From contig QPGO01000010.1 in assembly GCA_008632985.1 (NCBI GenBank), positions 310,001 to 374,000 on the forward strand: 64,000 nt of DNA, written 5' to 3'. Made by a program: the position numbers and the translations under genes. Source of the DNA: Psammoneis japonica (Eukaryota). The notes beneath the pieces are model-generated. The model did no database searches, was not told the DNA's origin, and saw nothing but the letters and a program-made list of their open reading frames with translations. Numbering within the stretch: position 1 is the first letter of the stretch; each line of letters opens with the position of its first letter. Below are positions 8,355 through 61,723 of the stretch, piece after piece.

Positions 8355-8700
8355 TGTTTGAGTCTCCACTCTTGAAGCCACCTCCTGTGCCCTTCACACA
8401 CTCCCACCTTTGAAGAACATGCTTCTTGAGATTGTGCCCATCCTTGATGTCTCTCAAGACCTGCAGACCTCTGTTGGTGCCCACGTGTTTGAGGACAACC
8501 AAGGGGCTCACCATCTGGCTGCCAACCACTGCATCACAAATCACACCAAGAATTTTCTTGTCAAGTGGCATTGGCTCTGGTCTCACTGTGACAAGTTTGA
8601 CATGTTCAAGGTGGAATCAGCTGATCAACTCACTGATTTTCTGACAAAGCCTTTGACCAGAGAACTCTCCGAGAACAACAGATTGAAGGTTTGGGGTTGG
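8355..8700 (+). mobile_element. Ty1/copia RNase H fragment (decayed)
   Basis: VFEDNQGAHHLAANHCITNHTKNFLVKWHWLW...VESADQLTDFLTKPL...GW matches the copia RNase H C-terminus (EDNxxA, RTKH, QLADxxTKPL). A purine tract GAGACAGAGAGGG lies downstream at about 8842-8854. Confidence 0.75.
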
Positions 8701-9507: not shown

Positions 9508-10557
9508 TCACATCACCGCCACCAGTGCAACATTTTGCCACATTTGTTTGTGTGATGAAAATGTTGTTGTTGCACTGCAAAGGGTTCTGACACACCCATT
9601 TGTTTGAAGCAGCCAATTCAGAGAGCCTGTTTTCTTCATCCTTCTTGACCCGTTTGGCCCCTTTCCTTCTTTTCTTCTTTGTTGCACGTCTCTCTCTCTC
9701 TCTCTCCCATTTTGCTTTGTCCATTCTTGTTGTTCATTTGAGGGTTCTTGTCTCTTGAATGCATCTGAAGCTGTGTCATCCTCCCCCATTGGACTTGCTT
9801 CCACTTGCGCTGCAATCTTGTTGGCATCTGGAGAAGTGCCTTCCTTCTCTTTTTGACCTGCTGCCACTGTTGGATCCACTTTCCTTGCAATCTTGAACAT
9901 GCTGTGTGTTGCATTCTGTTGATGGAATGACATCCAAAAGACATCCTGTTTTGCACCTTCATCCCAGCAATTCAGCAACTCCCAATCCCTTTCATCAAGC
10001 TTGACACAGTGAAGACAAGGCTGAGTGTCCATCAGGATGCCATTCTCTGCAAAACATGCCACTGCATGTTTGACTTTGACACCATCTTTGTCCAAAAAAT
10101 CCATGATTGCAAGACACATTCCATCTTCTTTCAGAAGCAAAGCCAGTTTACTTTGGTGTTCGTGGGGGCCAAGCCTTTGCACAAAAAATCCTTCACTCTC
10201 AAAAAACCAAGTGAAGTTCTTGGGCAACACCCGTTTGCATCTCAGAGCCAATTTGTTTTGGATCACCATTTTAGAAATGTGCAGTTTCTCTCTCTCCTTT
10301 TTGTTGGGGGAGCCATGCATTTGAGAACATGAATGCAGTGTCCAGAGTGCAACATCCCACCGGCACGTGAAGTTTGTTGCAGCAAAATCCATCTTCTTTA
10401 GCCTCGGCTGGGGACAAAATTCTGGCACCCACAACTGCATTGTTTCTTTGTTCCCATGTTCCTTTCTCAACTGTTTGGCAGTTTTGTTGACAGGACAATG
10501 AGCAACCAGCTCAGTCCCTGGTGGCAAAATCAGATGGACCCCCCAAGCGCACGCCAC
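9508..10557 (-). pseudogene. Remnant of a coding sequence of unknown function inside TE block A
   Basis: 349-codon open frame with globular-looking segments (TNFTCRWDVALW; KHAVACFAENGILMDTQP) and a charged tail. It has no Tyr. ORF length is weak evidence here because TAA/TAG stops are depleted. Confidence 0.35.
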
Positions 10558-10976
10558 TCAAGTTGCCAATTGCAGCTGCTTTGGCATCCGCAGTTGCAGC
10601 ATGTGACACTCCTTTGATGGCAGAGCAGCCCACAATGCAAGCTCCGTGGTCGCCCACTGTCATGGAGCTCGGGGGTGCATTGACTTCTTCTTCCTCTTTT
10701 TCTTCATCAGAGTCACAAAGAAGCTGCTGCCACCCATTGTTGCCAGAAGATTCATTGTCCATGTTTGTGTTCTGAAACTGAGATGAAACTGATTTGAAGC
10801 AGATTGTGTCAACAACAACCATGATCATGCAAGAAAACAACAAAGAGAGTCATTCTCTCACACCTGTGGCTCAATTGCGTTTTCTTGCGGGACTTTCTCC
10901 ATGCAAGGAGGCCATTTCATTGGATTTGTTTGCAGCTTGCAACAATCCAGAGGCAACACTGCACACTTGTGTCACT

Positions 10977-12166
10977 GAGTCGACAGTGTTGTCAGATTGC
11001 TTGCAGCCAGAACTGCCATCCTCTTGTTCCACAGTTTTGTCTGACACAGTGCATGGAGGAAAGATGGTGACAGCATTGAAGCATCCAAATGATGATGAGC
11101 CAAAACATTTTGGTCCACAAGGCTTTGTCCAGTTTCGGTGGACTCCACCAGAGCAGAGCCTGACCTTCTCCAAGAGGGAATGTCAGTTTCAGGACTTCGA
11201 TGGCATTGGTGGCCGGCACTCCTTCTGGCAAAAGAACATTTGATTGACAACAAAATGAAATCAATGAGAGTGAGTTTTGCGTCAAGACAAAATTTGAAAA
11301 TGCAAGATGCGAGTGATCCAACCCATTGACTCGCCTGGAACATTGGAGGCAGCATCTCCAAACAAACCGCTCTCTTCAGGAGTTTCACTTGCAGCTGACA
11401 TTGAACGTTCACTGGCTGCCAAGGTGTTTTCATTGGTGACAGGTTTTGTTTTTGCGGAAGGATTGCCCAAGGCAATTCAAGGTGAAGCGTGGCCAACTGC
11501 AGAGTCGTTCGTGGTCCCAGCAACAGCTCCCATTTCCTGTGGCAGTTCTGCTTCCCCGGTCTTGTCATCGGGCTTGTCCAAGGCAATGACAGGCAAAGTT
11601 GTCCCAACTGCAGAGTGACCATGGCTTGGACAGTGCTCTCCTTCTCCTTGCATGCAAGAGCACTCAAGAAGCCGTTGCCATCTGCAGAGTCGACAGCATT
11701 GTCGGAAGGCTTGCACCAACCGGAGCTGCCATCTTCTTGTTCCACTGTTTTGTGTGACAGTGCATGGAGGAAAGACCACGACAGTGGCGAAGCATCCAAA
11801 TGATGACAAGTTGAAACATTTTGGTCTGCAAGGCTTTGTCCAGTTTTGGCAGACTCCACTGGAGCAGAACCTTCACCAAGAGGGACAGACTCTTGGGCTT
11901 TCTTGGGATCGATGGCATTGGTGGTGACCGACACTCCTTCTGGTGAAAGGACAGCTGATTTTTAAAAAATGAAATCAATGAGAACAAGTTTTGTGTCAAT
12001 GACAAACAAAATGCAAACAAATCAAGCCAACAACTTGCTTGGAACATTTGCGACAGCATTCACTGACAAGCCACTTTTTCCGGAAGTCATGTTTGCAGCT
12101 AACATGGAACATGTGATGGCGGCCAAGGTGTTTTCATTGGCGGCAGACTTCGTTTTTGTGGAAGGA
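10977..12166. repeat. Direct duplication of about 480 bp (10977-11463 and 11687-12166)
   Basis: Both copies start gagtcgacag and share gtgcatggaggaaaga, gaagcatccaaatgatga, caaggctttgtccagttt, aaaatgaaatcaatgaga and gccaaggtgttttcattgg. Confidence 0.85.
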
Positions 12167-15100
12167 CCACTCGGTTTGGAGCTGGATGTGTCAAGGCCAG
12201 CACACCCTGTTGCAGCAGTGCGTGTTTTAGCAAGTGATGTGCTGTTTGCTTTGCCGCGGCTGGCAGACCTGACTCCTCTGTTGGGCGGTGCTTTGAGCAC
12301 AATGCAGCTGGCTTTGTTCGGCTCTGCCTCTTGGTTTTCCTTTTTGCTTGTCTTGCAATCAATCAGGTGGGATCAAGTGGCCAATGCATTTTCTTCTTTG
12401 ATGGGGTGGCTCCAGAGGAAAATGTCTTCATCCAAGTTGAATGATTGCTGGAGCAAGCGCGGTGGAGGATTTGATGATTCGCGCCATTGACAAGGACTGG
12501 ACGGCCTCCGTTGCCCACTTCTTCTTGAATCCAGCTTGGCTGGTCACACGCTGCCTCACAACAGCAGGCGCATCCAACACAGTGGCACTCCAAGCTTTTG
12601 TGCTAGATGCCAATCCGTTTGCATCTGCAGCTTGCTTTGCACGATTCCGTTGCATTGCCCAAAGTTGGCTTGTGAGCAGATGTTGGTTTCATGTCATTGA
12701 CAAAATGATGCCAGGCAGAAGGTGCCTTTGCATTTCTAAATTAAAAGCAAGAGATGAAGTCAAAGAAAAGAGACTGGTGAATGGTCGTGACAGTGCCAGC
12801 AACAAAAGTGAAGAGCAAGTTGCTTGCCTTGCTTTCGTTTTTGCATTTCACTGGTGGGCCCTTGAAATGGAGCACAGTCATTGCAAACTCAAGTTGTGGT
12901 CAGAGCTCTGGCATCTTCTTCTGACAATCCAATTGTCCTTCTAACCCACAAGGGCAGTGGAAGTGTCTCTTCACCAAACTCAGGCCCCAATCTGCTTTCA
13001 ACATTCGTCCATGTTAGAAATTCTTTGCATTGAATGGATTTAGGGTGGAGCGGCTTTGAAGATCGTTTTGAGTCTGTTGAGTGCTGCTTCGGGGCTTTCG
13101 CTTCATCAGATAATTTCCGTCACTTAGACCACTTCCAATCATTGTCTCGTTTTCCTCTCCTCCTTTTAGACATGTGCAAAGCAAGAGTTTGTCTCTCCCA
13201 GAGAGGATTTGCTGATGGCAAGTCTTCATCCAATGACAATGGTGCCGTGAATTTTACCATGTTCAATCCAAACCATCCCCATCAGTTTCACAAGAGGTTG
13301 AGAAGAAAACAAAGCTTGCACATGAGAGGGAGACTTGATGAAGAGCAGTGCAAATGAACACAACAGTGATGCAAAGCAATTCTTGCCTGTTTTGCCAAGA
13401 AGGATGGCCAACGGCAACGTTTCAAACTGAAAACAGGGTGTTTTGACAAAGAGCTTCTCGCAATGTTGTCACAAGCTGCAAAGCAACGAACAAGATGTGA
13501 GATGAGGGACAATGATGCAAGACACAAAGACAACAAGAAGGGGAGGTGAAAGAGCAACACTCACCAACTGCATGCAAGTCAACAATGAGCAACAACAACG
13601 AACGTTTTTATGAGTTTGATTGTGCACTTTGAACTTGTGGGCTTGTGACGGGTTGTGATGGGCTGGGTCGTGGCTCCTTGCATGCACAAGTGCACAAAAT
13701 GTTTGGAGTTGGCCAACAAACCTTGTGGTGCTGCATTTGTCGCACCTGCCTTGCCGGCACATCTTTTTCTCTTTTTTCTCTTTTTGCTTTTCCCTTCTCT
13801 CGCCCCCCTCCAACAAACTCCCAAAATCTGGAAGACCACTCTGACATTTGAGGCAGCGCTTGTGTGTCAGCAACCATTCATTTCAGCGACAATCTTGGTG
13901 GCTGGCAACTTGTTGCTGCTGTTTGCTGCAGCCTCAGCACACGACCGTGCTGCTTGTTGTCAGAGACAGACACCAGAGAAACAGGCTGTGGGTGTGAGTG
14001 CAAAGTCTGTGCTCCCCCCCTTGAAGACTTTTCAGCATGTCAGCTTTCACTTTGTCAAGAATGGCAGTTTGCTGCTGACAAAACCACTGCAAAAGTGTTG
14101 CTTCTCCTTTCCCTTTTTGGTCTACAATGCACTCCATGGAAAACAACCAATGATGATGATGTGAAGTGTCTTTTTGTCACAATGAAGGAATCCTTCAATG
14201 ATGACCATGAAATGTGTCCACACTTGCAGAATCCACAGCACGACTGCTGCATGTTTTTGTGCAAAAAAAAACTGTTTTTGTCTTCTTGCTGTTTGTGTGC
14301 AAAAATGGACTCCAGCGGACTGTCGTCTGACCAGGCACACTGCTGCAAATGTGTTGGTCTAAAATGTGCCTGATCAGATGACAGTCAAGCCCATTTCTCA
14401 CCCAAAACAAAATTCACAGCAGTGAAAGAAAGACAGAAATGGCTTGGTGTTTGTTTCTCAGCACTGGACCATGCATGTTCTGTGCAATGGGTCAGCAGCA
14501 TGAAAGATTGTGCCGCTGAGTCTGAAGATCCTGGCACGCAGATCAACTCATCTTTTGGCACAGGTCTGCAAGGTCCAAGCTCTGAACACCATGAAGAACA
14601 AAGACATCATTTTGCAACTCAATTGCTTGCTGTCACACAAGCTCTCCAAGCTCCTTGCTGCCAGTGTTGCTGGGGCCAAATGAGCTTTGTGCCTTTGTTT
14701 GGTCTCACAGGAACTTGGTTTTTGTTGACAGCAACCCCGCTCCTCTGCTCACTGACAACTCTTTGGCTGTCAAAAGGATCAACACCATCAGCCCCCTGCT
14801 GATGGCTGCACTGCATTTATGCTCGCCACTTTGCTGTGCACCAAGGCTGGCATGAGAGACTGGAAAAAGTTGAAAGTTCTTGCACTCATGACACCATGTT
14901 CTCTTTTGCCCCACAGCGCAGCTGCAGCTTGTTGACTGTGTGATGCAGCACATGGCCGTGCTGTGTGCTTTGTCATGAGACAGTGCGTGAAACCAAACAA
15001 TGCAACGGATTGGAGAGACGAACCATCGGACAACGGATTTGGAGCCAGCTCGTCAAGGAGCTCATTCCAAATCCATGCTGTGATGGTTTGTCACAGTTGT

Positions 15101-15943
15101 CCTTGCTTGTGTCTGCACGTTGCACAGAAGGAAACTGAATTTGCCATTTTTGGACACGCCCCCCCACTGACATTGTTGCCAAGGTGGTTCTCCGGGTGGG
15201 TGCTTCATGCTTGCCATGCTCTCGACAGTTGATGGGGTGCTGTGGCCAACTCTTTTGGTTGGTGCCCACTTTGGTTCTTTCACTTGTTGTTGGAGACCCT
15301 TGCAGACACCAATTTGTCCTTTGTCTGTCTTCCTCTTTCCTTTTCCTGTTGGGCATTTTTTTCCAAGAAACCAGGGCTCTGCCAGATTGCTCATCAGGGG
15401 AGTCGAGAGTGGCGGCTGTCTGGTTGTTGGGTGTTGTGTTGGGTGTGTTGGACACACACAACCAGATGGACAGACCCAGCACATGCAGACAGCACATGCC
15501 TCCCCTCACTTTTCCTTCATCACCAGCAGTGCCGCACTTGTTGTTGTCGATGCTGCTGTCCCAGCATTTTTTGTTGGGCTGCCCAGACATCTGGTCATGT
15601 CCTGGCACATCTCTGTTTTCCACTTAACTCTGCCACACTGCTGTCTGCTTTTCATCATCATCTTGCCAAAAGGTGGTCAGAGGCTTTTGGTGTCTTTTTG
15701 GGCAGCTCAGCACGTTTCTCTCATCAGCAAGGGGGGGGGCTGTTGTTGGCTCTGCGGTTTTGTGGCACACAAGCTGCCAGCTGCGAATGGTCTTTCTCTT
15801 TTCACCACTTCATTGGCTCACCACAGGAAAAAGCTGACAACATGGGGCAGATGATCACTCGCTTTTCACTTTTGCACAGAAATGCTGGTGTTGTGGACTG
15901 CATGCACTCACATTGACGGGAAGGCAGGCTCTGCAATTCGCCA

Positions 15944-15966
15944 GTCAAAAGGCGCTTGTGCTTCGA
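15944..15966 (+). repeat. 23-bp direct repeat, copy 2 (copy 1 at 322-344)
   Basis: gtcaaaaggcgcttgtgcttcga; it lies where TpA frequency returns to normal. Confidence 0.7.
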
Positions 15967-17634
15967 AATTTCAAAAGAACAGAATAAGAAGACAGCATCT
16001 TGCTACCGGTACAGTAGATAGAGAGAGTAGACTCTTAGCTTAGCAGCAGGTAGCTACCGTACGCAGATGATAAAAAGACAGCTGCACAGGCAACACAGTC
16101 ACAGGCTCAGATGTAGATTCGATAGAAAGGCACCCCTCTTCTCGAGAGGATGAAGCTCATACATCCTGTAGCACAGGGAGCAACAGGATATCCTCATTGA
16201 ACATCAATAAATTGCATAACTTGATCGAATGAGGCAAGTGATAAAGTCACTAAGAGAAAGCTATCTGCTAGTACAGTACAACCCGTTCACCCTCACAGCC
16301 ATTTTCGTCCCTGCAATTTAACTCTTTCCTATATTTCCATGCAATATGTATCGTAGTACCGCAATGACGTATCTGCCTTCCTGCTCATCCTTTAACGCGG
16401 CTTGGAACAAGCTTTCCTTCCGTTGTCATATCTAACTGAAACCAGCACTTGTACCTACGCAATTTTGCCGCATGCGCCTTCTACGTCAACTATTCAAACG
16501 TGCAAAACATGTAACCAGCGGTATGCCTCAAAAGGACAAACTAATGCTTTCCCTGCTTCTGCTTGAGCCATTCCTCGTGGTCGATGCCGAGTCCTTCCTC
16601 GAGATTCTCCATGCGCCTAGGAATGCGACTCGTGACCCTCTTTACGAGGGTGTCTTGAGGTTCTTTCCCCCACGTCTGAATGAGCATATTTCTTTTGCGT
16701 GGATCAACCTGACACCAAGAAGAAGATTAAGTAACAAAAGACTACAGTTAGTCTTCATCGATACAGTTTATTTGAAGCGATGCTCTCCATCAATGCTAGG
16801 TGATGAACAACTGCAAGTCATAGCACAGTAGAGGAACTCACCTGCACATCCTTGTAAGTTGTCACGGCATGAAGTCCCATACCACACATGAACGTCAAGC
16901 TGAAACATGAACGGAGAGAGAGAGAGTTGGAACCGATGAGGACGCCCATTCACGGAAGATGACGACAACCAAGTTCGTCACAAAACCTACCCTGCACCGA
17001 GGATTGCAATCAACGGGTACACTGATGGATCTTGCAGAAAACCTGAAAAAGCAAACAATGAGAATGTCGTTTCGTGCGCAGGAAAGCATTTAGTTCAGAA
17101 CAAGGGATAACAGAAGCGTCATGAAGAGAGAAGCCTGATGGAAGATCAAAATATGACCAACCATGAAGATCCGCCGCCGTTCTTACCTTCTCGAAAGGTA
17201 TTCGCGCTATCCATACGAAGCCCAAACGGATGTTTTGGCCCTATCCGATCTGCTGCTTTGGTGGCGAATCGACGTCCGACAACGCGGTTTCGGAGGAGGG
17301 TAGATGTCAACATGGCGGGGACGAGCTGAAAAGATATTTTGTGACACCTTTCTCACATCACAGAAGAGCGATGTCAAAAGTTCAAGGCGCGGGAACAAAG
17401 ATACGAATTTGGCTACGCAAGTTACGTGTAAGTAGGAAGACGTAGAAATGTACTGAGCCTGTTGGAGGGAAGTTTTGGACGTAAAGATGCAATGAAAACC
17501 CAAAAGCAAGTTTCTTCTGAGCTCACGCGCCGGGATGTGACGGACGAAACAGTACGCAAGACTGTACAAAGTACAAAGCGAAGAAGAGAGCGAGCACAGA
17601 GAGAGTACAACCAACAACGGATGCGGCCGCAACT

Positions 17635-25679: not shown

Positions 25680-27800
25680 GTGGTCGTGCTGCTCTGCTCT
25701 GTCTGCTGGCACCACAGGGCCCCAGGTGAGAGCGGAGTTTGGCTGCATTGCTTGCTTGTCCACTCTACAGCACTGTCACAGAGTCCTCCAGCAGCACCAG
25801 CAAGGAGGCAGGTGACACCGGCCACCCAGAAAGAAAACACCAGCTTGGGCAAAGCCGTGCACCACGAGTCGTCGAGCATTCGGGGGTCAGCAAGGCACCT
25901 CATTTCTCAAGCCAAGAGAAAGATGTCACTTGCAGACATTGGTGGAGACTGTCTTCTGAAGACATTTAGATGAAGTTGCAAGCTTGAAGCACAGCCACAT
26001 GCATGGCTCCTCTTCTTGCCCTGCTGGTGGCTAAGAGGTGCTGGGGCTCCAGTGTGCCCCAGCTTGGCGGGTGGGATTTTGTGCCGCTGGACTCTGGCGT
26101 TGAATTTTTTTGATTTTTTTGTGTCATTTTGTGTCATTTTGCAGTGCAGCTGTTGGGTGATCCATGCAACAATGACCAACAAGTGATTCTTAGAAGTCTG
26201 CACACACAACATGCACTTAAAAATTTTGAGAGAGAAGAGAGGAGACATTGTTGTGCTGCACAAATTTGCTCATTTGTTTGTGCGCTGATGAACACAAACA
26301 ATGCACCCCGAATTTGCAAGCAGCAGAGAGCTTGTCCACAAAATTGTTCCACATGACCCCGTGTGTCACAAGGAGCACCACCTGTGGGGAGCAGGGGAGG
26401 AGAGAGCAGCCACACCAGAGCTGCTGGCTGGCAAGTCTGGCTGGAGTTAGCAGCTCCTTTGCAGCGTGTCAAATCACTGCCATTTTTGTTGTGGCGTGGA
26501 TTTGTGCTAGAGCAACAAAAAAAATTGACAGCCCAACACTGTCAAAGCTGTGCACACACAGCAGGAGTGGCCTCGACACACACCACCAAAGTGAGCGCCA
26601 AAACAGAAATGTGCAACGAAGCCAGCACATGATCATCTGTCAAGCAAAATCCAGCAGGAGGGAGCAGCAGGTGGCTTGCAGACACCCTTGCCCAATGCAC
26701 AGCAATTCTCACCCAGGCCGCACTCCTGAGTGCAGCACAAAGTTCAAGGAAAGCCTCCTCAAGCAAGCTTTGTGCCTTTGGGAGAACTCATGAGTTTCTG
26801 CGTTAAAGTGAGATCATTTTGGCCAGTCCTGGGAAACTTTGCAGTTTGCACACCAACAGCAAAAGGCAGTGAGCTTCTCTTTGTTGTGAGCATGAAATCA
26901 TCTTGGGGGCATTGGGGAGGGCTCAGAAGAAAGCAAAAACATGGCTCAAGTTTTTGCCACAAATTTTGGTGCCTTTTGCCCACTTTCAAGGCTCTTCTAT
27001 GAGCAAACCCAGTGCAGGGCTAAACTCCAACCAATGGAGCTTGAGGAAAGCAATGTGAGAGTGTGCACCCTTTGCCTTGCAAGTGCCAATGTTGGACTCA
27101 ACAAGTTGAAAAGTTGTCAGTGTGCTGTTCCTCCACAGCTGTGTGGGCGCCAAGCAACTCACATTGAAGCTGGGAGTCTGTGCTGCAGCTCATGACATGA
27201 CAAATGGCACCACATGTGAGAGTTGTGACCCCTTCAAATCAACTTCACAACTCACCTTCAACTTCACCTCAGTCAGAGTGCCATTGTTTTCTTTTTTCAT
27301 CCAGTTTTTTGCTCCTTGAGAGTTTTGACAAGGCTTTTGGCAGCTTCATGTGCAGCTTTCTTGGCATCACAACCACACAGATGCTGGCTTTGTTCCACCA
27401 CTTGACATTGTGCTCATTTAGTTTGTGAAACATTGTCTTGGCAGATGTCACAAAGATGCTGCTTGTGTGGGGGCATCAGCAGGCAGGTTCTTTCAGCAAA
27501 TCAGAGCAGCTGCAGCTGAGATGCTTTTGCAACTTGTCACAGAGCTGGTCTTCCACAAGCAACTTTTTCCTTCCTAAAAAGCTCAAGTTGTTCTTGGTTG
27601 TCTCCACCCTTCAACCATGATTGTGATGCCCTTGCAGTTGGCGGCTTCAACAAACAATGCTCCTCAGCATTCACCGTCTTCTTCAGAAGCACTCAGTGCA
27701 GCTGTGTGTCCAACTGCACTTGCTCTTCCTCAGCTGGAGGAGAGCTCTAAAAGTCAAATGAAGCCAACCCTTTTTGGTGGGCTTTTGTTGCCATCAGCAA
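25680..27800. other. TpA- and CpG-depleted block B (unclassified decayed TE)
   Basis: Same composition as block A, sitting between two normal genes. Most residual TpA are in TTAG/CTAA/TTAA/CTAG. No domain or terminal repeat recognised. Confidence 0.8.
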
Positions 27801-42083: not shown

Positions 42084-42089
42084 TCATTG

Positions 42090-49624: not shown

Positions 49625-52262
49625 GCTTTTGCGGCAATGCTGTAAGCAGCAGTTGTTTTGTTTGTTGACGTGGTGCGATGATTTGTGATTGTGTTCATTT
49701 CCATCTTCATTCACATCATTCGCTATTCTGGAATTCAGTGTTCAGCGTCTTGCGGTCTGTCGTCGACATGATGTTTTGGACTATTTATTTCAGTGCTGAT
49801 CACCTGCATGTTGTGCCATGGATTCGTCGTCGTCGTGTTTGCTTGTTGTTGGGGAGTTACAAGTGTTCTGCCAAACTGACGGAGTAACAGAAGAATGTCC
49901 ACGACAAGCCACATGGGGTTTAATTGAGCCATCTCAGTGCTAAAGTGGCCAGCTGCAATGCTCTCTGGCAGAGAGAAACAGAAGATTCGCAATTCTTGAG
50001 TTTGTCTTTCTGACGGCACCAAGCTCTGTCCACCCACCTTTTGAGGTGAAGAATCACCTGGCTGGATGAAAATGATGTTGAACACCTTCTTCAGCTGAGC
50101 AACAAGTCTCCTGTCAGAGTTCTTGGGCTTGTCTTGAAGTTGGCCTTGAGCACGTGGGTTGGCGCACCAGTCAGGATCAAGAAGCAGACGAAGCTGTGAT
50201 GGTGGCAAGGCAAGCCCAGTGGAAAACCGCAATGGGATTTTCTTCACTGGCCACAGATGATTCCTTGTGAGTGGCCTCTTGCTCCCAGTCATTGCTCTCC
50301 ATGGAGGTTGCTTTTCCAACATGCAGTCCTCCCAAGGCTGGGATGCAGCACAGCAGAGCACAAATCCACACACAGTGTTGGGAGACAACAAAAATCACTG
50401 CAGAAAAACATTTGCCTGCCTTCAACAAAAAGCTGTCTTGGAGGGTGCATCTTGTCTAAAAGGACGAGAGAAACACAGCTGCAAATGAGGCTGTTGCACA
50501 TTGTTTGCAATCAAATTGCACAGAATTGACATGACAAAAGTGCCAAGAAGTCTTGACTCATCAGAGGAATGGTGCAAAAGAGCTGTCATCTTAGTCAATG
50601 ATGGCTTGGATTGCAATCATCCACATGGAAAAAACAGTTGATGTGGTTTAGAACATGTGACGACTGCTGTGGAGGTTTGCTGTTTTGGGAACTCAAAGAA
50701 AATTTGGTGAGAACATCTTGGGCACAAAATTGCATGGAGGATGAAATGCACACAGCCATTGGAGATGAGAGCAACAAGAAGAATCACCATGAAATGTTGA
50801 AGGCACAACAGAGCACCCCCCCTCCAACACCTGTGGCATCTCAGTCATGGCACAACTGCCTGACAAATGTTCCAAACAAGTGTCCCAGGAGGTCAGCACA
50901 ACACCAAACTCCAGTGTGGGGCAGTCCTGTGGGGTGCAGAAAAGCAAATGCAGCCAAAACAGCTGGACCAGCACAACTGACAATGAGCTCAACATGCAGG
51001 AGTGACTGTCAACAGCTTGCCATTCCTGGTGTTCTAGCCATGACCTTTTCTCCAGTCCATTTCCAATGACCTTGATGCCAAACACTCCCTTGATTTTTTT
51101 GGGATGATTGCAGTGAGAGTTGACCCTCATTCTCTGCTTGGTGGTCATGGCATTGGCAAGCCTCAGATTTTAGCAACAAGCAGACCTTCCAGGGCACAAT
51201 GCATGGCATTGTTGCCCTCCCACTGCCAGCAGCTCATTGAAAAAGGACAAGCACCATCTGCTGCAGTCGTGCAGATGTCTTAGAATGAAAACAGTGCAAG
51301 TTAGAGAGTTGCCAACAAGAAAGGCAAGCAGAGCCATTGAGCAGCTGAGGCAGTGCAGAGCTGGTTTCTCTTGAGTTCTTTGACTGTTCAGGGCACTCCC
51401 GTGCTTTGTGACAAACACATTTCAACTTGTGGGATTGTCTTTTGCCATCAACATGATTGTCTCTCACTGTCACAACAACTGCCACAAAGTGTGGAATGCA
51501 CCATTTTTGATTGGCTTGAGGTCACTTCTTGTTGATCTGTCAACTCAAGCAAACAGCTGCAAACAAGCACCACTGTGCTTCATCCAAAACAGATGTGTGC
51601 AAGCTTGAGCTCAGTTGCTGCACCGATGAAAATGCTGAGCTCATCCTGGAAGGTTGCACTCATGGAAAATCAATGATCTTCAGGCTGTTGCAAAGTTTGC
51701 CGGCAATGCAACCTGCCAAACAAGTTCACCACAGCACCAACAAGAGTGGAGTCAAATCCACTTGCTGGAAGTGATGGGCTGTCATTGTGCAGAAAAGTCC
51801 AATGAAGGGACTGTGCAAGAAACTGCCAATTGCACAAATTGTCTTCAGCAGCAGGAATGTGAAAACAAGATCCAAAGAAACAGATGAGAGGAGACATGGA
51901 AGAAGAAAAAGCCCGCAGTGCCAGAGTGCATGAAAAGCTTTCTGGAAAAAGTGCCCAAAAGTTTTTCTGACCTGGACAAGAATGAGACCATGACAAGTCT
52001 CTGGCACCCTCCTCCCCGAGAAGAAGATGCACTTGAGGTGGTTTCTCAAGACAATGCAAAAGTCTGCTTTGCTCACAAGGAATCATGGTCACAGTCATGA
52101 GAGAGTGGCTGTGTTGATGGCTGTGACAAACCTCAAAGTGTTTGTCCTTGTTTGTTTCCAAGTGGCTGAAGATTTTGCTCATGTGCACACTCACTTTAGA
52201 AGTCAATCATTTGTCCATTTGGGGAGAGCCAATGCTGGCATGTGGTTTGTTGAAGTTTGCGG

Positions 52263-52538
52263 TGATAGAAATTGAAGGCAAATGGCAAGAATTCAAACAA
52301 CAACTCCTCACTGCTGTCTAAACAGCAGATGAGTCTCCGCTCAGAGACCGTCACAGGAGCCGAAAGACATGCAAGTCGGCACAATTGGGCTGCTGTTGTC
52401 ATTCTTGTGAGCCTTGTGGCTCGAAAGCAAACTACATCGCGCGTGAACGCGCGGAACTAAAGCACACAAAACTGTGCGCGGCAAACTAAACAGCGCGCGA
52501 TGCTTCGCGCGCATCCAAATCCTGTTCAAATCCTGTCA
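52263..52538 (-). repeat. 3' LTR of the copia element
   Basis: tgatagaaattgaagg...tcaaatcctgtca; aligns without gaps to 58921-59196. Confidence 0.95.
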
Positions 52539-52539
52539 C

Positions 52540-55500
52540 TCCCCAGTTTGCTTGAGGAGCCACAGAAACAGATTCGACTTCGGATGGAATGAAGTTCCAG
52601 AACATGAGGGGTCGGAGAAGGTCCCAGATTTGGGAGTGACCCCAATGCTTGCTGAGAATGTCAGCAGGGTTGCGGGAGCCTTCAATGAAGTGGAGCTCAA
52701 GGCAACCAGAGGCAATTGCCTCACGCACACGGTGGAACGACAGTGCGGTGTGTCGCTTGTGTAACTTGGAGTGCGGGATGGTGGCACTGTCTACAACCGA
52801 CTTGTTGTCACCGAACATGCAACTGACATTGCGGATCGGGACGCCAAGGTGGCGCAGGGTGATGCGCAGGTCGACAATCTGCTCAACACAATTCCTTGCG
52901 GCAACAAATTCAGATCCGCAGGTTGCAGTCTCCACGGTGGCTTGTTTCTTGGAGAACCAATCAGCCGGGAATTTGTTGAGGAAGTGGAGCATTCCCATGA
53001 CAGAGCGTCCGGTGAGCATGCAATGGTGCAAGTTTGCATCGACGTGGTGGGTGGCAGTGACAAACTTGCCAAGGGGCGGTGGAGCGTCCTTCGGGATCAT
53101 CTCTTCTGCTTCACCACACACGGAATGCATCCATTCGCAGGCCGGAGCAGGGAGATCCGAATGGTCGGGCTCTTCCGTGCGAACGCGGAGAGCACCGTGT
53201 CGCATCTTGGAGAGGCACCCACAGACGCGTTTGGCACGATCCAAGTGGCCTTGACGGGGCGCAGCTCGGAAGCTAGAGAGTGACATGACGGCCGTGGTGA
53301 TGTCAATTCGACCAAGGGACACTGCCCATTGGAGTGAACCAACAAGAGACTGGAACTTGTGAATGCCATCGGGTCCCAGCAGTTCGGAAGTGTCCAGTTC
53401 GGGGTGGTCACCCTTCTCTAGAGGTGACAGGGCGTTGGTGGTGGGTTTCTCCCCAAACAGTCGGGCGCAGCTGTCGACCATGCGCTCGATGTACTTGCGC
53501 GGAGACAGGCACAAGGTTCCGTCGGGGTCCCGGGAAAAGTCGCAACCCAGATGGAACTCAATGGGTCCCGCACCCTTGAGCTTGAACTTGCACTTTTCCG
53601 TGAGAGTGTCGACGAAAGATTGAGGGTCCTTCATGGCAATGGCGAGGTCATCCACATAAACGGCAATGTGTTCATAGTGGTCGCCGTTCCTGCGCATCCA
53701 AATGTCGGGTTCGGCGTGGCAGGGGAAGAAGCCTTCAGCTCGCAGGCAGTCGGCGAAGCGCTCGTGCCAGCGGAGACCGGAGCTGCGGAGTCCATACAGT
53801 GCCTTGTGGATGACAAGGATGTGTCCTTCGAGTTTGCCAAATTCGGGTCCAGCCACAATGTAAAGCTTCTCCTTGGTGGTGGCTTCAAGGCAGGCATTGC
53901 CAATGTCGGTGGCCCATGTCTCCAGCTCGTTGAGTTCGGCCAGGAAAATCATCAGCCGAAGGCCACGAAGGGAGACCACTCCGGAGTGGACACTGTCGAC
54001 AGGTGCGTCCGTGAGGTGCCCGTCGGCTGCGAGTCGTGCCTTGTGGCGACCGTCGTGTTTCACGTCGCACACCAGGTGCACTCGGATCTTCTTGTGTCCC
54101 GCAGGAGGAGTGGAAGACTTGAAGGGCCCGCAGTCATGGAAGACTTCGTATTCATCGAGTTGGTCCATCTCGAGATTAGTTGCGTCTCCCCACTTGCGGT
54201 TGCCGTTGCGTTCGTCCAGTGACATGGCGTGTTTGTAGTTCCGGGGAACTTCGCATCCGCACTTGCAGCGAGGTGCAGTGCGGAAGGAGCGAAGCTTGGC
54301 TTGGTTGGCCATGCGAAATAGCTTCTTTTGGCGCCTCGCGATGGTGCGGAACCGCTTCCATCCATCCGTGTCGAGGAGTCCGTTCTCTCGTGCATAGATG
54401 GCACAGGTGACGGGGTCGTCCTTGGCGATGATGGCAAGAGGCTCGGACGTGATCTCCCCACTTTCCCATTCAAGCATGATGTTGTAGCTTGAGCCTTTCC
54501 AGGTTGGGTCGTGAGGCTTCAGAGGGCCTTCGTGTGACACGATGCGTCGAAATTTCCAAACAGTGGTGTCTTCGTCTTCTTGCTCAATGTGATTCATGAT
54601 GTCATTGTGGGCAAGGACTTCCTCGTATTCGTCATTGTTGACAGAGCAGACGAACTTAGTGAGCTCGGGATTGCCGTTCACTTTCCATTCGTGGTCTTCG
54701 ACGGCCTTGACGATGCGAGCTCTGTGGCGTTGTCCGTCCTCTTGTGGCTGCATGAGGAAGGTACGTCCAATGATGTCTTGCGGATCGAAAACTGGCATCT
54801 TGGGTGTCCTGATCTCCCCATCAGGAGAATCGACGGGGTTGTCGTCATGGCGAGATTTGATGATGGGTTCAGGTGGCTCCCCATCAGGAGGATCAAGACG
54901 CAGGTTTCGAACGGCAGGATCGGGGGTGGCGGAGCGAACGTTGGACCGGCAGAGGATCTTCTGAGTCTCGTCAGATAGAATCTTGAAGGTCATCTGGTGG
55001 CCGACGTGCTCAGCAATGCCAACGAAGCGTCCACGCAACTCACGAGATTCGGACGGCCAATCGGAGTCATCGAGGTGGAAGTACACTGGTTCCCACCAGT
55101 GAAAGCGAAGCAATGGGCTGATGTCCGGGGTGGATCCAGTGAGAGTCTTGAGGGGCGTGCGCCAGTGGAGACGTGGGGACGCTGCATGGTTGAGTGTGAA
55201 GCACACGCACATGAGCGCCAGCAGCCATGTGTGGGCGGGCGAACCAAAACGGTCCATGACAGTGTTCGCCATGCGCTTCACAGTCTGGTGTTGACACTCG
55301 GCAAAGTTTTGGTGTTGCTGGTGAGGCTCACTTTGCCAGCTGGAGATGAAGAGGGCGCGTAGGATCCCGAGCACTTTGTTGCTGATCTCAACTTGAGCAC
55401 GGTCGCTAATGAGTTTGGATGGGGCACCACGTTCACGGATCTGATCCTCGAGTGTGTTGACAAACTCTTTGTCCGTCTCAGTGCCGCAGACGTCAGTGAC

Positions 55501-56330
55501 GGTAGACTCGGTGCCAACAAACAGTTGGGCGCTGGTGCAACCAGAGTCGACGGCCGGGGTGTCGGCACAAACGGTGTCAGTGGCGATGGGCTCGTTGCGA
55601 CGGTGCACATTAAGGGCGGGGTTGGGTGATTTGAAGGCCTTGCGAAGGTGTGCACCGGCGGGCATGCGGGTGTACTGCGTGGTGCAGTCAAAAGTACGAC
55701 GGACCGCATTGGCAGGTGGGAAGCCAAAGCAAGGCCGAAGAGACTCGAAGGGGGGGTCCTTGGGCTGTGCAGTGCGCTCCGGAGGTGGAACGTCATCGCC
55801 CTTGGGGTCAATCGCACGCAGATGACACTCGTGGAACACGTCGTCGTTCGGAATGAGGTGATCATCGAGGGCGGACGCGTGATCGGCAGACAAGGAAGCG
55901 GACAAGATGGTCTCGTTGACAACGACACGGTGACGGCAGTTGCCGCATTCGTCAAACAGGTTGGCAGTGGGATCGTCCTGTGGGTCAGAGATCGCGTCGC
56001 ACCACTGGTCATCGTCAGTGACAGAGTGATCGAGGACGGAAGGGTCCCATGTGTCATCACCGGTGAGGATGACGTGGGGCAGGGTGTCCCATTCGGCGTC
56101 AGTGTGGGGTCGCATGGCAACACAAGGCAGGCCAGCCTTGATGTCAATGGGGATGACATGGCCATCAGGAGTGGCGGTGCGTTGCAAGCCGTTGGGCACC
56201 TTGACAGAGCGATCGTTGACATCCTGTTTGTGCCATTTGAGCTGGCCGCAGGAATGGATGGCAGACGTCGTCGCCAGCAATGCCGCCGTTGGCCCCACGA
56301 TCGACTAGAGCGCCAGTGCGTGTGGAGCGA
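52540..56330 (-). pseudogene. pol: Copia pol (protease, integrase, RT, RNase H), inactivated mainly by missense changes
   Basis: LVDRGANGG (PR); IATDTV, LISDRAQVE and SEPHQQHQNFAE (IN); KARLAADGH, DIGNACL, KALYGLRSS and YVDD (RT); GSEFVAAR, MFGDNKSVV and NPADILSK (RH). Frameshift near 56300; 1270-codon open frame with only about 12 Tyr. Confidence 0.9.
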
Positions 56331-56599
56331 TGAGCAGAGGCAGAGCAAATGACATTGTGGTTGTCAACGCGGCGGCAAGTGCGGCCGTCAAGTTCTGTGT
56401 CATCTGCAGAAGCTGGCGGGGTAGAGGAAGCGGCGGATGGCCCCGGTCGACTGGCATTGGGGGCTTGGTTAGGAGACAACAGACGTTGCAGATCACCGGG
56501 TGGCAGTGGCTTGCGCTTGGTGAGGTGCGCCAGGACAGGATTGTCCGAAATGGCGCCCACATGTGCAGCGGAGTCACCACAGTCAGCAGGAGTCGTGTT

Positions 56600-57997
56600 G
56601 GACAAGTTGACATCACCGTCACTCCCAAGGTGTTGGTCGTGAAGGTTGGCCGTAACAGACTCATGGCAGTTGCTGGCTCACGGGTTGCAGGGAGGCGGAC
56701 GAGAGTGCTCAAGGATGATCGCCTTGGAGGAATCGGGCAACGAATCCCAGAGCCGTTGGTGGTCGGGAGGGAGACGTCTCCATTGGACACCGGCGAGGCT
56801 GGGACCACGGGTGCAGGCAGCATTGGCTTGAAGGACGTCAACGTCGCTGTCAATGTCGCAGAACACATGGTCGGACGGTTCCTCGGAGTGGACGTCGTGT
56901 GTGCATGTGGCGCGTCGGGGAGCTCGAGGTGTCGTCTTGGGTTGAAACGTGCTGTCGCACTGAGCTGCCGCGGAGAGGAGCAAGCCACAGCATTGATCGT
57001 ATGTGAGGCTCTTGCCACTCTGCGTGCGATGCTGATCAGCTTGGTTCTTGACAGCACGGAGTTCCTCGACAGGGTGCACGGCATTCTCGAGCATGATGCG
57101 CTTCTGTCCTTCAGAGAAGTGGTCGCTGGCGGGGATGAGTGCCTCGTGCTTGCGCAACTGATCTTGCCAATGAAGGATGAACCCGTGGGTCGGACCTTTC
57201 CAAGTGCCATCACCAAGACGTGCGGTGGTGAGGTGCGTGAGCAGGGTGGAGGACTCGACAGATGCATGGGTGGAGGCAAGCGCGCATTCAGACAAGGAGC
57301 GGCAGACGGTCTGTGCGTCAGAGGACCCCACATTTTCGCGAATGAGAGCCTTGCCCTTGTCGGTGAGAAGGATGCGTTCGAAGACGGCGAACATGCACTT
57401 TTGCTGTTCAGCAAAGAGCAGTTTGTCTTCGGGGCTGGTCGGTTTGTACGACGAGTCTAGAATGCACTCGACGTCTTGGGCACGGGCTTGTGCCACAAGT
57501 GAGGTGTGCCAAGTGTGCCACTGCTTGTCGGATTTGAGAGCCGTGAAAGCGGTGGGATCACGCTTGATGCCTCGCTTGAAGTCTCGCACCGGGTCGCGTG
57601 CCTTGGTCGGGTTGGTGACATGTGGAGGTGCAAGGGGTGAGCTGCCGATGGACAGAGAGGACATGCAGTGCGGGCTGAGGCGGCAGGCAAGGAACTCGTC
57701 ATGCACGAACAAAGAGGAGTCGTTGGCAACGTCAAGACCTTTGTGTGCTTTGACAATGTACAGGCCAACCAGTGCTGCTAACATGTTCTTATAACCACGG
57801 GGCAAAGGGATTACATTGGTGCCGTTGTCGCACTCAAGCGAGTCGATTTGGGACGGTGTGAACGTGAATGGTTCCTGATGCGAGTCCGTGCCGTCTTGGG
57901 CCAAAGCCAAACGAAGAGGACTCCCAGCACCTTGGGCAAGCACGGTTCCAACAACGTGCTCGAAACCATCGGTTTGTTGCTGACGAGTGAGAACCAT
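56600..57997 (-). pseudogene. gag: Copia gag
   Basis: MVLTRQQQ...DFKRGIKRDPTAFTALKSDKQWHTW...AQARAQDVECILD...MLENAVHPVEELRAVK, typical of CoDi gag. Frameshifted into the PR region near 56680. Confidence 0.85.
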
Positions 57998-58920: not shown

Positions 58921-59196
58921 TGACAGAAATTGAAGGCAAATGGCAAGAATTCAAACAATGACTCCTTGCTGCTGTCTAAATGGCAGATGAGTCTCCGCTC
59001 AGAGACCGTTGCAGGAGCCGAAAGACGTGTAAGTCGGTATAATCGGGCTACTGTCATTATTCTTGTGAGCCTTGTGGCTCGAAAGCAAACTACATCGCGC
59101 GTGAACGCGCGGAACTAAAGCACACAAAACTGTGCGCGGTAAACTAAACAGCGCGCGATGCTTCGCGCGCATCCAAATCCTGTTCAAATCCTGTCA
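58921..59196 (-). repeat. 5' LTR of the copia element
   Basis: tgacagaaattgaagg...tcaaatcctgtca; 19 substitutions versus the 3' LTR by manual alignment. Confidence 0.95.
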
Positions 59197-61723
59197 TGCG
59201 GCCAGAGCCAACTCCTGTTGTTCTTGTGCATCATTTGCTGATTGGTTGCCTTTCCAGTCTTGATCCCCCACACACATGTCCAAGAGAACCATTTTGCTTG
59301 AAGTCTGCACACCAACCAGCCTCAGACCAACTGTCCAGAGATGGCATCCATGAGCACTCAAGGTGGTGACGGCAACCCTGGCAACAGCTGCAGGTTGTGG
59401 TGCAGCGCTGCTGACACCAGCCCACAACACATGGCTGGACACCAAGAGCAACAGCAATCAATCAAAACAGGGTTGTCATCGTGATGACACACCCAACACA
59501 GCCCAGAAAATTTCACAAAAAGAGAGAGAAGAGCAGCAGCTGCAAGGGTGCTGAGAAGCAACTCTTGTCATCACAGGACATGACAAGAAATCTTGCCAAT
59601 GTGACTCACATTGAAAGCCACTGGTCCTTTCAAAGAGAACAGACACAACATTTCCCTGCTCCTCTTTCTTCTTCTTCTCCTCCTCCAAGAAAGTCACCTC
59701 ATGTCCCCTGTGCTTTTGCTCATTTTTTGGGATGTCTCAAGTGTGCTTGCCTTTCCCTGTGTTTTTGGTTCTTTCCAGGGCAGCATCTCAACCATTGTGC
59801 AAAAGCTTGGGACCATCCTTGTGCTTTTGGCATGTTCACAATGGCTCTTTTGAAATGACTTGCTCAAAGCTGTCATGACCTCAGTCATCTGTGAGAACCC
59901 CATGTGCTGCAGATTCAAATCATTTCAACCAGCAACATCTCTTGCAACAAGGTTTTTTTGGCTTGCTGCAGTTGCTGGCACAAGATGTTGTGTTTTCAGG
60001 TTCCCACAAGATGTTCTTGGCTGCACCCACAATGTGCTCACCAGCTCCATGCACAAGCCATCTGGCTCAGGTTTGACATTGCCACACTGGGGACAGAGAT
60101 GCATTTTTTTCTCCCTGGTCATTCTCAGGTCTTGTTGTGGCGACCTTTGCTCCCTCTGAAAGAGCATGGGTGGTCTGTTTGGAGGTGCTCTTTGTCTTTG
60201 GTTTGTCTGTGTGCTTCCTGTCTGGGATTTTGCAGAATGACGCTGTGTCCTGTGACTTGGTGGCAGTCACAATGAGGGCCATTCTTTTTGCCTTGCTGTG
60301 TTTCTCATCTGTCTCACTGGCCATCCTCTTGGCATGTCCATGGCTGCCTCTCTGTCAAGCACAACACAGTGCATGTTGTGCTTTGTGTGGTGGCCACAGA
60401 CTTGAAGATGGATGAAGACAACATGGTTGTGCTGACTTGCTGTTGATGCCACAATCCTCCCGCATTTTTCATTTTGCCATCCAAATCAATCACAGCTGCT
60501 GACTCATCAATGGGCTCTTCTGCACTGTGGCTGATGGTGTGTTTCTTGACACAGCACTGGCCAGGTTTTTGAGCCAAGCCACCATTGCTGTCTTCATTTC
60601 TGCATGATTGGCAGCTTGTCTTGCCTTTGTTGTGGCTTGTTCTGCCACATTCATTGGATGGCCAGTTGGACAACTGTGTCTTGCTGGTGACTCTGGAAAT
60701 GCAGCAAGGCAAGCACATTGTTGGATTCCTCCAACTGCATTTTTTGTGTCTTTGTTGTCAATGTCTCCATCACAACTCTTGCTGCTTCTCATCACTTTCT
60801 GGTGCTCTGGCTGGTCACAAGCTCTGCATGTCATCTCTTGTGTTTTGCTGCATTTTTCTTTGTGACTGCCACACAATGTCTTCCAACATGGCATGTGTGC
60901 TGATGTTGCTGGGCAGGCCATGCAACATTTTTTTCATCCAGTTCGTTCTGCAGTTGATGCTGGTTTTGAATTTTTGTTCTGTGCTGTCTCCTGTGGCATG
61001 TGGGCACCTTGGGTGGCACTGCAATTGCCAAAAGCAGTGTCTTTTTTTTTCAGAAGTGCCTCCAAGCTTGGGGCACGTGAAGCAGTTGGAGGACATTTGA
61101 CACCCCGACTTGTCTGTTTTGATGTGACAGAGTCTGTGTTGCAGCAGGCTCACATTGAATTTCTTGTTCCTCTGCCAGTTCTTGCAGGAGTTGCTGAACT
61201 GGAATTTTGTTGTTTGACATTCCTCAGCTGCATTGTCACCCAACATTGACATCAAAGCATTTGCAGTTGACTTGGTCTAACATGTGCATCAACACAGCCA
61301 CCAAGTTCCGATCACTGCTTTTTGCTCTTTGTTGTTGACAACCATGGTTCATCATCAACATCATTGCATTCATCATGGCTGTCATCACTTTTTCAAGATG
61401 CAACAACTGTCACGACGCCTTTGGCAGTGATGGAAGACTTGCGGCAATTCCACCCCAAAAATAATGCAGACTACAGTGGAAACGGGACGATCTAACGACA
61501 CTTCCAGGTTCTAGGACAGCGTAATGCATGCACTCTAGAGAGACAGTGAGATCTCCGTCTTTCTATGCTAGCAATCTGTCTATCTCGCATGGAGCGTACT
61601 CCCTGAATGAAACCCACCTCAAGGAGAATTTTGCGCCATTCCATATCTCTAGTTTTTCCTCTTAACAATAATACCGGTAATAACATGGTAACTACTGTAC
61701 TTATGGCCGTGCAAAGAACCGTC

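Follow-up and report, generated by a model that had tools for sequence, protein, structure and literature searches.

The window, 64,000 nucleotides of a contig from the diatom Psammoneis japonica (QPGO01000010.1, positions 310,001 to 374,000), contains at 52263-59196 a Ty1/copia-type LTR retrotransposon, with its parts on the minus strand, bounded by 276-nt LTRs and a 5-bp target duplication. The 5' LTR (58921..59196, minus strand; 10 TA, 21 CG) and the 3' LTR (52263..52538, minus strand; 5 TA, 19 CG) were aligned as direct repeats of TG...CA form, with 93% identity, and the duplication, CCGCA in the orientation of the element, is unbroken beside them (upstream copy, 59197..59201; downstream copy, 52258..52262; both minus strand). 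gag and the start of the protease (56264..57997, minus strand, frame -1) were located by tblastn, colinear with homologue residues 1-587, and pol occupies a minus-strand frame of 1270 codons without a stop (52486..56298), as an earlier note on this DNA had described it. A Pfam match to the RVT_2 reverse-transcriptase domain was obtained at pol residues 732-943 (53470..54105, minus strand; E = 5e-26; 92 bits, cutoff 31.6), with YVDD retained at residue 881. About 730 conserved residues, colinear with the homologues, precede this domain; no integrase model of Pfam matched the window protein or the intact homologue P0001. The homologues have a single gag-pol frame of about 1850 aa, and two lesions break that frame here: an in-frame TGA (56678..56680, minus strand, context CCG TGA GCC, in gag frame -1), which may have originated from CGA by CpG -> TpG, and a protease-region deletion with a shift from frame -1 to frame -2 (56261..56283, minus strand), at which about 47 homologue residues are missing. 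Contigs of other copies differ in the letters on either side of the deletion point (56261-56265). The family is represented by 13,034 contigs in sequencing run X1, and the locus is probably a single dead member of a Ty1/copia-type family that is very abundant in a diatom nuclear genome. The transportin gene likewise identifies the host as a diatom.

Residue retention in pol was scored at conserved columns, taken as those where 80% or more of 60 homologues share a residue. Tyr was kept at 10 of 31 such columns, the remainder holding Cys (10), His (9) or Phe (2), and the earlier note's claim that Tyr is singled out was upheld by the retention of Phe (22 of 24), of Trp (18 of 19) and of the pooled non-Tyr residues (546 of 594). 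Fisher's test gave p = 7.5e-15 for Tyr against this pool and 3e-8 against Phe plus Trp. The nine motifs quoted in that note were all found, and the 60-homologue consensus shows Tyr in the places occupied by His or Cys in the window, with the consensus forms DIGNAYL, GYKKIRVHLVFDVK, DSVYSGVV, APKYKYGFEV, RIYGYLSK, ETATYGSEF, LRYLGVP, SYMFGDN and KHWGYSQ. Since the homologues carry Tyr at the affected columns, His and Cys are not native there and the direction of change is TA -> CA/TG, as had been proposed. Tyr makes up 0.94% of the window protein and 3.85 ± 0.30% of 120 homologues (range 2.9-4.5%, minimum 2.86%), and Cys 3.0% against 0.92% (maximum 1.34%). Among the pol positions with Tyr in the majority of homologues, 29 are His or Cys in the window, and the two predicted outcomes are near equal, with 16 Cys and 13 His; in gag, the 19 Tyr columns of the homologue P0002 are matched in the window by Cys at seven, His at five and Tyr at two.

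These replacements follow from the Tyr codons, TAY, which are converted to CAY (His) or TGY (Cys). Among the 69 mismatches at conserved pol columns, 25 are single TA -> CA/TG changes and seven are CG -> TG/CA changes, and the rest comprise four other transitions, 16 transversions and 17 multi-step differences. Changes were also seen, as predicted, at codons that span or contain TA, namely three Thr -> Ala, each preceded by a codon ending in T, one Lys -> Glu after T, one GTA -> GCA (Val -> Ala) and one ATA -> ATG. By the genetic code, TA -> CA/TG creates no new stop (TGA arises in this way only from TAA) and removes TAA and TAG in all frames, so pol has stayed open while being ruined; the proposal of inactivation by missense rather than nonsense therefore stands for pol but fails for gag-pol as a whole, which carries the in-frame TGA and the frame-shifting deletion. 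The process was incomplete, with central survivors, as the note had said: 12 Tyr remain in pol, at residues 209-936 and including that of YVDD, and conserved Tyr was kept at 11 of 23 columns in the centre of pol and at 0 of 17 in its ends (Fisher p = 0.0008). Some of the mutation could thus have taken place under selection for a working reverse transcriptase, before this copy inserted.

A native composition, in which the family avoids TpA and His and Cys are functional replacements, is scarcely credible. Many RNAs avoid UpA, and among 71 metagenome relatives two contigs have moderately low TpA observed/expected ratios (o/e) without loss of Tyr (L060, 0.24; L068, 0.29), but the median TpA o/e of these relatives is 0.69, which together with the 2.9-4.5% Tyr of the 120 homologues indicates that the pattern is not native to the family. 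Some replaced pol columns are Tyr in 57-60 of the 60 homologues, a stop and a deletion disrupt this copy as well, the LTRs of this one insertion differ at TA sites, and in one metagenome contig, L070, the Tyr of YVDD itself is lost. L070 has a TpA o/e of 0.01 and CVDD in place of the family's YVDD, and its residues at the 37 positions where P0001 has Tyr are 14 His, nine Phe, eight Cys, one Tyr and five others; judged by its sequence, it is an independent second case of Tyr -> His/Cys loss, in an unrelated metagenome assembly. The extreme TpA pattern was found in this one of the 71 relatives, many of which combine normal TpA with a CpG o/e in the range 0.07-0.25.

The two LTRs of one element are identical at insertion. 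Here they differ at 14 dinucleotide sites, every one a TA/CA/TG/CG exchange (seven TA versus TG or CA, five CA versus TG, two CG versus CA or TG), and nothing else is substituted along the 276 nt; the change must therefore have arisen in DNA after integration, on both strands. Each of the five CA-versus-TG sites is one ancestral site struck in both copies, on different strands. The estimated hits per LTR copy amount to about 64% of TA and 4.8% of CG, or a rate per site about 20 times higher for TpA, and the TpA change is much faster than ordinary mutation. The 16 Cys and 13 His in pol, together with no excess of CA or TG runs, indicate that both strands were struck and that sites were independent; a runs test of CA/TG order for strand-coordinated tracts gave z from -2.6 to +2.4 in the affected blocks, with no consistent clustering; the values for two background stretches were -1.5 and +0.2. 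Biased gene conversion among copies was rejected by reasoning, since it would homogenise outcomes and bring in other types of difference, whereas the LTRs differ only at TA/CA/TG/CG sites and with opposite outcomes.

Editing before integration, by an ADAR-like enzyme on RNA or an APOBEC-style deaminase on cDNA and fixed by retrotransposition, would suit a family with very many diverged copies, and ADAR/TadA-type adenosine deaminases prefer a 5' U or T neighbour. Such edits, however, would enter both LTRs, yet these differ at 12 sites derived from TA, and at five of those the two copies show opposite outcomes; editing of one strand would also give one direction rather than 16 Cys and 13 His, strand-coordinated runs are absent, and in the single-copy old flanks of the element, too, the assembly and a read contig disagree as CA versus TG. 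We regard this explanation as highly improbable. APOBEC3-type editing likewise hypermutates LTR retroelements and leaves fossil copies in genomes (parts of PMC4866542); it acts as C -> U on minus-strand cDNA before integration and leaves G -> A on one strand and identical LTRs, whereas the changes in the present element are A:T -> G:C, on both strands and after integration.

TpA o/e is 0.16 in pol, 0.18 over 52000-59000 and about 0.55-0.6 where the window bears genes; in affected DNA generally it is 0.04-0.20, with CpA/TpG o/e of 1.38-1.78. The young element has lost about two thirds of its TpA with CpG nearly intact (o/e 0.90), and in older blocks of the window TA is almost absent and most CG is lost (CpG o/e 0.22). 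These unstranded blocks lie at 473..15984 (TpA o/e 0.00-0.03, CpG o/e 0.11-0.46, sharp borders), at 25767..27747 (TpA o/e 0.09, CpG o/e 0.18) and on either side of the element, at 49950..52257 to the left, with single-copy read depth, and at 59202..61461 to the right, and the element is inserted into what was one older TA- and CG-poor block. Over 59146-61461, the first 51 bases of which belong to the 5' LTR, TA o/e is 0.01 and CG o/e 0.15 (1 TA, 20 CG). Block borders are sharp, within 150 nt, and the adjoining genes have a TpA o/e of about 0.6. Of the 68 frames in the old blocks that run from stop to stop and reach 110 aa, none had a Pfam match at E < 0.001, and six weak matches in old-block frames (0.0047-0.043) were all far below cutoffs. 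In old-block repeat pairs, only 27-31% of differences were of TA/CA/TG/CG type, compared with 17% in a control pair, which makes the tie of the old blocks to the same process less clean.

Transposon-directed point hypermutation is familiar from RIP in fungi and APOBEC in animals, both of which act on cytosine. Like RIP in ascomycete fungi, the pattern described here is a fast point hypermutation of repeats or transposons, on both strands and with sharp borders, that inactivates in place, and its restriction to a high-copy family with neighbouring single-copy genes untouched is RIP-like. RIP changes C -> T mostly at CpA, which creates TpA and stops and lowers G+C (parts of PMC2621366 and PMC7882544). 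Here, unlike in RIP, TpA is destroyed and CpA/TpG created by A:T -> G:C changes, no stops are made and G+C rises, so that the RIP signature of TpA excess and CpA/TpG deficit appears in affected DNA with the opposite sign. Decay of methylated CpG in silenced transposons, by deamination of 5-methylcytosine, shares the palindromic pyrimidine-purine step and the TpG/CpA products, and is also present in the old blocks, but it leaves TpA alone, whereas the young element keeps CpG and loses TpA, and in the LTRs the loss extends well beyond CpG (about 64% of TpA and 4.8% of CpG hit).

The same features bear on a passive by-product, in which a symmetric epigenetic base mark at transposon TpA, such as N6-modified adenine or an oxidised or hypermodified thymine, is miscoded or misrepaired and no dedicated mutator is involved. 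5-Methylcytosine at CpG is the model for a mark that miscodes at a raised rate. A symmetric mark predicts a palindromic target struck equally on both strands, as was found; the same blocks show decay of CpG, classically the methylated palindrome, and their sharp borders resemble those of silenced elements. The speed gap nevertheless resembles enzymatic hypermutation more than slow decay, with LTR TpA lost about 20 times faster per site than CpG and the 2 x 276 nt free of any further substitution. We know of no TpA-specific mark in diatoms, a full-text literature search found none, and the passive explanation is considered unlikely.

All runs found to contain the locus, none of them listed as RNA, derive from a single sample in a single study, possibly the source of the assembly, so that their agreement is not independent support within the organism. 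Variation among other copies in this sample comprised 334 variable places, 297 of them transitions; of the 40 places displayed, 27 are TA/CA/TG/CG exchanges, five of which are adjacent TG-to-CA doubles within the element, and 13 are differences of other kinds. Pol residue 1046 is CAT (His) here and TGT (Cys) in 60% of the depth of other copies, and in the single-copy old flanks a read contig departs from the assembly by a CA-versus-TG exchange. A sequencing or assembly artefact, in which miscalling of modified transposon bases makes genuine TA (and CG) appear as CA/TG, has a precedent in the systematic miscalls at methylated motifs of some long-read base callers, and the library type of X1-X4, which may underlie the assembly, is off record. 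It is nonetheless very unlikely, as the TA-poor flanks are present in exact-word contigs from X1 with an even depth of 50-80, the unrelated metagenome assembly with L070 has the same signature, and miscalls at a palindrome should yield some TA <-> CG exchange, while both dinucleotides are nearly absent from the old blocks.

The explanation favoured here, to which, together with the identification of the locus as a dead copy, a probability of about 0.7 is assigned, is a transposon-restricted TpA -> CpA/TpG hypermutation after integration. In outline, about two thirds of the TpA of this copy would have been changed to CpA or TpG in chromosomal DNA after insertion, by A:T -> G:C transitions equally likely on either strand and independent between sites, with almost no other change meanwhile. 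The process would be limited to discrete inserted blocks with sharp borders, sparing neighbouring genes, and over time TpA would sink to a floor of resistant CTAA/TTAG and TTAA, with CpG lost more slowly. As far as the spectrum of changes alone can tell, a candidate agent would be a mutator directed to transposons or heterochromatin. It could be an enzyme that deaminates the adenine of TpA in DNA to inosine, which is then read as G, or a modification of the palindromic TpA step that is specific to transposons and strongly mutagenic. ADAR, TadA/ADAT and engineered adenine base editors make the same base change, A -> I read as G; the natural substrates of ADAR and TadA/ADAT, unlike the DNA considered here, are RNA, and to our knowledge no natural enzyme of ADAR/TadA type mutates chromosomal DNA.

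That some diatoms have a genome-defence mutator of a novel kind, rewriting TpA in the double-stranded chromosomal DNA of integrated transposons, is suggested tentatively, at slightly less than even odds; within this reading, adenine deamination on either strand is the most likely chemistry. Such a mutator would spare CTAA/TTAG and TTAA and would achieve a 'silent' inactivation that ruins Tyr codons, TATA-like motifs and two of the three stop codons while G+C is not lowered, and a natural enzyme targeting adenine in DNA would then await discovery in such genomes. No description of TpA-directed hypermutation was found by full-text literature searches, subscription journals lying outside their scope, or by term look-ups in parts of PMC2806351 (Maumus et al. 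2009, on CoDi clades) and of bioRxiv 10.1101/2025.10.24.684338. A TpA-specific, transposon-directed DNA process would, if true, be a third and chemically different route of transposon hypermutation and the first genome defence of its kind in stramenopile algae, would account for long genome stretches without TA and CG, and would provide a simple dinucleotide index with which to date and detect silenced diatom elements. Stretches lacking TA and CG have misleading long open frames in all six frames and will be mishandled by repeat finders and gene callers. The pattern points to an enzyme or base modification acting on A:T pairs in DNA, which would be of direct interest for base-editing technology and algal epigenetics.

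The context of surviving TA shows weak trends in the young element (CTAA 2.2x; ATAT 0 of 67), and a clear context effect only in the old blocks. A half-site model, in which A is struck only in TAY, fits six of seven single LTR events and fails in pol, where Tyr codons after a pyrimidine gave seven Cys and seven His. In the LTR alignment, a run of four CA in the 5' LTR faces four TG in the 3' LTR, too short a run to count.

The Ty1/copia-type LTR retrotransposon (52263–59196, 6934 nt, minus strand) was delimited by its paired LTRs (58921–59196 and 52263–52538, minus strand, 276 nt each, TG...CA, found by repeat comparison), and by a 5-bp target duplication, CCGCA, flanking both ends. The pol frame (52486–56298, minus strand, 1270 codons, stop-free) contains a Pfam RVT_2 domain (E = 5e-26), and gag (57997–56264, frame −1) was placed against the single gag-pol frame of homologues. 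Among 1463 homologues, the top 120 show 54–67% identity, most have 1800–1950 aa with gag-pol as one frame, and nearly all are metagenomic.

Pol was aligned with 60 homologues, and columns with the same residue in ≥80% were treated as conserved. Tyr was kept in 10 of 31 such columns (otherwise Cys 10, His 9, Phe 2), compared with 546 of 594 for non-Tyr residues (75–100% for each residue type), including 22 of 24 for Phe and 18 of 19 for Trp (Fisher p = 7.5e-15 against all other residues, 3e-8 against Phe and Trp). The systematic replacement of Tyr by His or Cys claimed in an earlier note, from the sequence alone, is thus borne out, with Tyr more often replaced than Phe or Trp, and with Tyr in the homologue consensus of all nine motifs quoted there. 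Columns with Tyr in more than half of the homologues read Cys 16, His 13, and Tyr 11 in the window, and against the 120 homologues the window protein has 0.94% Tyr rather than 3.85 ± 0.30% (minimum 2.86%), and 3.0% Cys rather than 0.92% (maximum 1.34%).

At codon level, 25 of the 69 mismatches at conserved pol columns were single-step TA to CA/TG changes, 19 of them at Tyr. The remaining six were Thr to Ala (three), Lys to Glu, GTA to GCA, and ATA to ATG (one each), so that the changes anticipated at codons spanning or containing TA, such as GTA to GCA, were recovered; all three Thr to Ala changes and the Lys to Glu change stand after T (for Thr, a T-ending codon). Other mismatches were CG to TG/CA (7), other transitions (4), transversions (16), and multi-step changes (17). 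Outside the region covered by the earlier note, the window's gag retains Tyr in 2 of the 19 Tyr columns of P0002, a homologue protein, with Cys in 7 and His in 5. Together, the Tyr columns, codon steps and gag losses give the direction as TA to CA/TG, as had been proposed. Conserved Tyr survive solely in central pol (residues 209–936 of 52486–56298; 11 of 23 there and none of the 17 towards the ends, p = 0.0008), and TA retention is uneven along the element (in 630-nt bins TA makes up 0.9–13% of TA+CA+TG, chi-square p = 0.0075). Central survival may reflect regional differences, or part of the mutation may have occurred in a lineage still under selection for a working RT.

Under the genetic code, TA to CA/TG yields TGA only out of TAA, creates no new stop, and erases TAA and TAG in all frames, in agreement with the earlier argument that pol stays open; hence also the many frames of >100 codons on both strands here. 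Inactivation by missense rather than nonsense holds for pol and fails for gag, which has a TGA within its reading frame (56678–56680, minus strand) and, near 56264–56283, a loss of ~47 protease-region residues relative to homologue gag-pol, with a jump to frame −2. This copy is therefore inactivated by missense changes plus the in-frame TGA and the frame-shifting protease deletion. Across 56261–56265 the sequence differs in contigs from other copies, consistent with a deletion present in this copy alone or in only some of the copies.

Both LTRs of one insertion are identical at the outset. The present pair differs at 19 nucleotides, forming 14 dinucleotide sites: seven where TA stands opposite TG or CA, five with CA versus TG, where each copy was mutated at the same ancestral site on opposite strands, and two with CG versus CA or TG. 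The 276-nt alignment contains no substitutions of other kinds, and the chance of all 14 events falling in such dinucleotides, considering transitions only, is ~1e-4. With 4 TA and 19 CG undamaged in both LTRs, and after correction for invisible same-outcome double hits (arithmetic on the LTR alignment), ~21 ancestral TA were estimated, ~64% of them hit per LTR copy, compared with 4.8% of CG. The rate of TA change is far above background substitution, and CpG decay was rejected as the identity of the process, which is TpA-specific and faster. Since the LTRs of one insertion differ by TA, CA and TG, mutation acted on chromosomal DNA after integration, on both strands, ruling out RNA or cDNA editing as the main cause. 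APOBEC/ADAR-type editing, which affects one strand before integration, is excluded by the same two-strand, post-integration pattern.

The element sits inside one of several older stretches identified from per-kilobase dinucleotide ratios, in which TA and CG are nearly gone (473–15984, 25767–27747, and the flanks of the element at about 49950–52257 and 59202–61461). Individually, these blocks have TA observed/expected (o/e) ratios of 0.00–0.09 and CG o/e of 0.04–0.46, with CA/TG at ~1.8× expectation, normal G+C, and sharp edges (transition inside 150 nt). TA and CG o/e were 0.04 and 0.22 in the pooled blocks (22.4 kb), 0.20 and 0.90 in the young element, and 0.61 and 0.97 in the gene-bearing background. 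Long spurious ORFs occur in all frames of the blocks, and a Pfam search of 68 of them gave no match. One repeat piece has 7 TA and 8 CG in normal DNA (42562–42749) and 1 TA and 1 CG in an old block (4239–4458), the latter copy departing from the former mostly by TA to TG/CA and CG to CA. A tandem pair within an old block showed 13 CA-versus-TG doubles (control pair, 1); in these old repeat pairs, only 27–31% of all events were of TA/CA/TG/CG type. Repeated segments that lack the TA/CG loss were also seen, normal in composition and 86% identical, with transversions frequent among their differences (41450–42110 and 61693–62326; 42142–42555 versus 43935–44969); repetition alone may therefore be insufficient for targeting, or the segments may belong to gene families.

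Genes between the blocks (17521–49000) are ordinary nuclear genes. A transportin (29912–32671) was identified by database search; for its fragment 30818–32671 the best named relatives are diatoms at ≤62% identity (Cylindrotheca, Thalassiosira, Nitzschia, Cyclotella, Discostella, and an MMETSP entry 'Asteri...'), and one transcriptome entry is labelled Alexandrium. The host is accordingly taken to be a diatom, one that lacks near sequenced kin in the database searched. Putative potassium-channel-like (33605–35023), cyclin-like (35924–36943), and DnaJ-like (40459–41223) ORFs were named by reading the translation.

For the 61 TA surviving in the pooled old blocks, CTAA/TTAG accounted for 31 (7.1× background share) and TTAA for 11 (5.1×), with no ATAT, ATAC/GTAT or GTAC among them; of the four TA that neither LTR has lost, three are TTAG. 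Survival is thus non-random, the process has a context rule, and CTAA/TTAG and TTAA look like the resistant context. The change is post-integration, in DNA, TpA-specific, strand-symmetric, block-restricted, faster than CpG decay, and resisted by CTAA/TTAA contexts. CA and TG form no runs along the blocks, indicating that sites were hit independently. Such a pattern would suit a transposon- or heterochromatin-directed agent. Deamination of adenine to inosine would produce this base change (A:T to G:C at a T-A step), and TadA/ADAT and ADAR enzymes prefer U or T on the 5′ side; the main alternative to deamination is that the palindromic TpA step carries a mutagenic modification. The process is rated as transposon-directed point hypermutation. 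It is like RIP in logic, but RIP makes TpA and stop codons, whereas the present process destroys both. A full-text literature search, its scope mostly outside subscription journals, found no account of such a process, and the underlying chemistry has a fair chance of being categorically new.

At 71 metagenome loci encoding relatives, the median TA o/e of the matched pol DNA is 0.69. One contig, L070 (1–2766), encodes a distinct copia element that shares 62% protein identity; over 2586 nt its TA o/e is 0.01 and its CG o/e 0.47. Of the 37 Tyr columns of the homologue P0001, it keeps Tyr in one and has His in 14, Phe in 9, Cys in 8, and other residues in 5; CVDD replaces YVDD, and the frame is broken by just two stops. 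L070 is a second case of this signature, independent of the first. No 800-nt window below 0.15 TA o/e was found in the other loci, save one in L033 (0.14). TA depletion is accordingly neither native to the element's family nor confined to this assembly. Many relatives lose CpG alone (CG o/e 0.07–0.25 with TA o/e 0.47–0.66; L034, L030, L033, L039, L017, L007, L058, L065), which resembles the ordinary decay of methylated DNA, here in different hosts.

Other copies were sought in X1–X4, the sole public sequencing runs with the locus (one sample, one study, possibly the assembly's source). Within 50500–60499, summed contig depth was 52–80 in the flanks and 38,000–260,000 in element bins, a sum that is not a copy number. 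X1 yielded 13,034 contigs on the element, ranging in likeness from <90% to >99%, and 297 of 334 variable places were transitions, with A>G, G>A, C>T and T>C about even. Among the 40 differences listed (299 more were recorded), 27 were TA/CA/TG/CG exchanges, 9 other transitions, and 4 transversions, and at least five adjacent TG-to-CA doubles lay in the element. Residue 1046 is CAT (His) in this copy and TGT (Cys) in 60% of other copies' depth, so that a single Tyr codon has had two independent outcomes. A read contig from the single-copy old flank shows TG against CA in the assembly at 50809–10 and 51181–2, and read/assembly differences across 50691–51398 are possibly allelic divergence of a mutated block. 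Within that interval, 51200–51398 is covered by two contigs (depth 37 and 43), one with 11 differences from the assembly.
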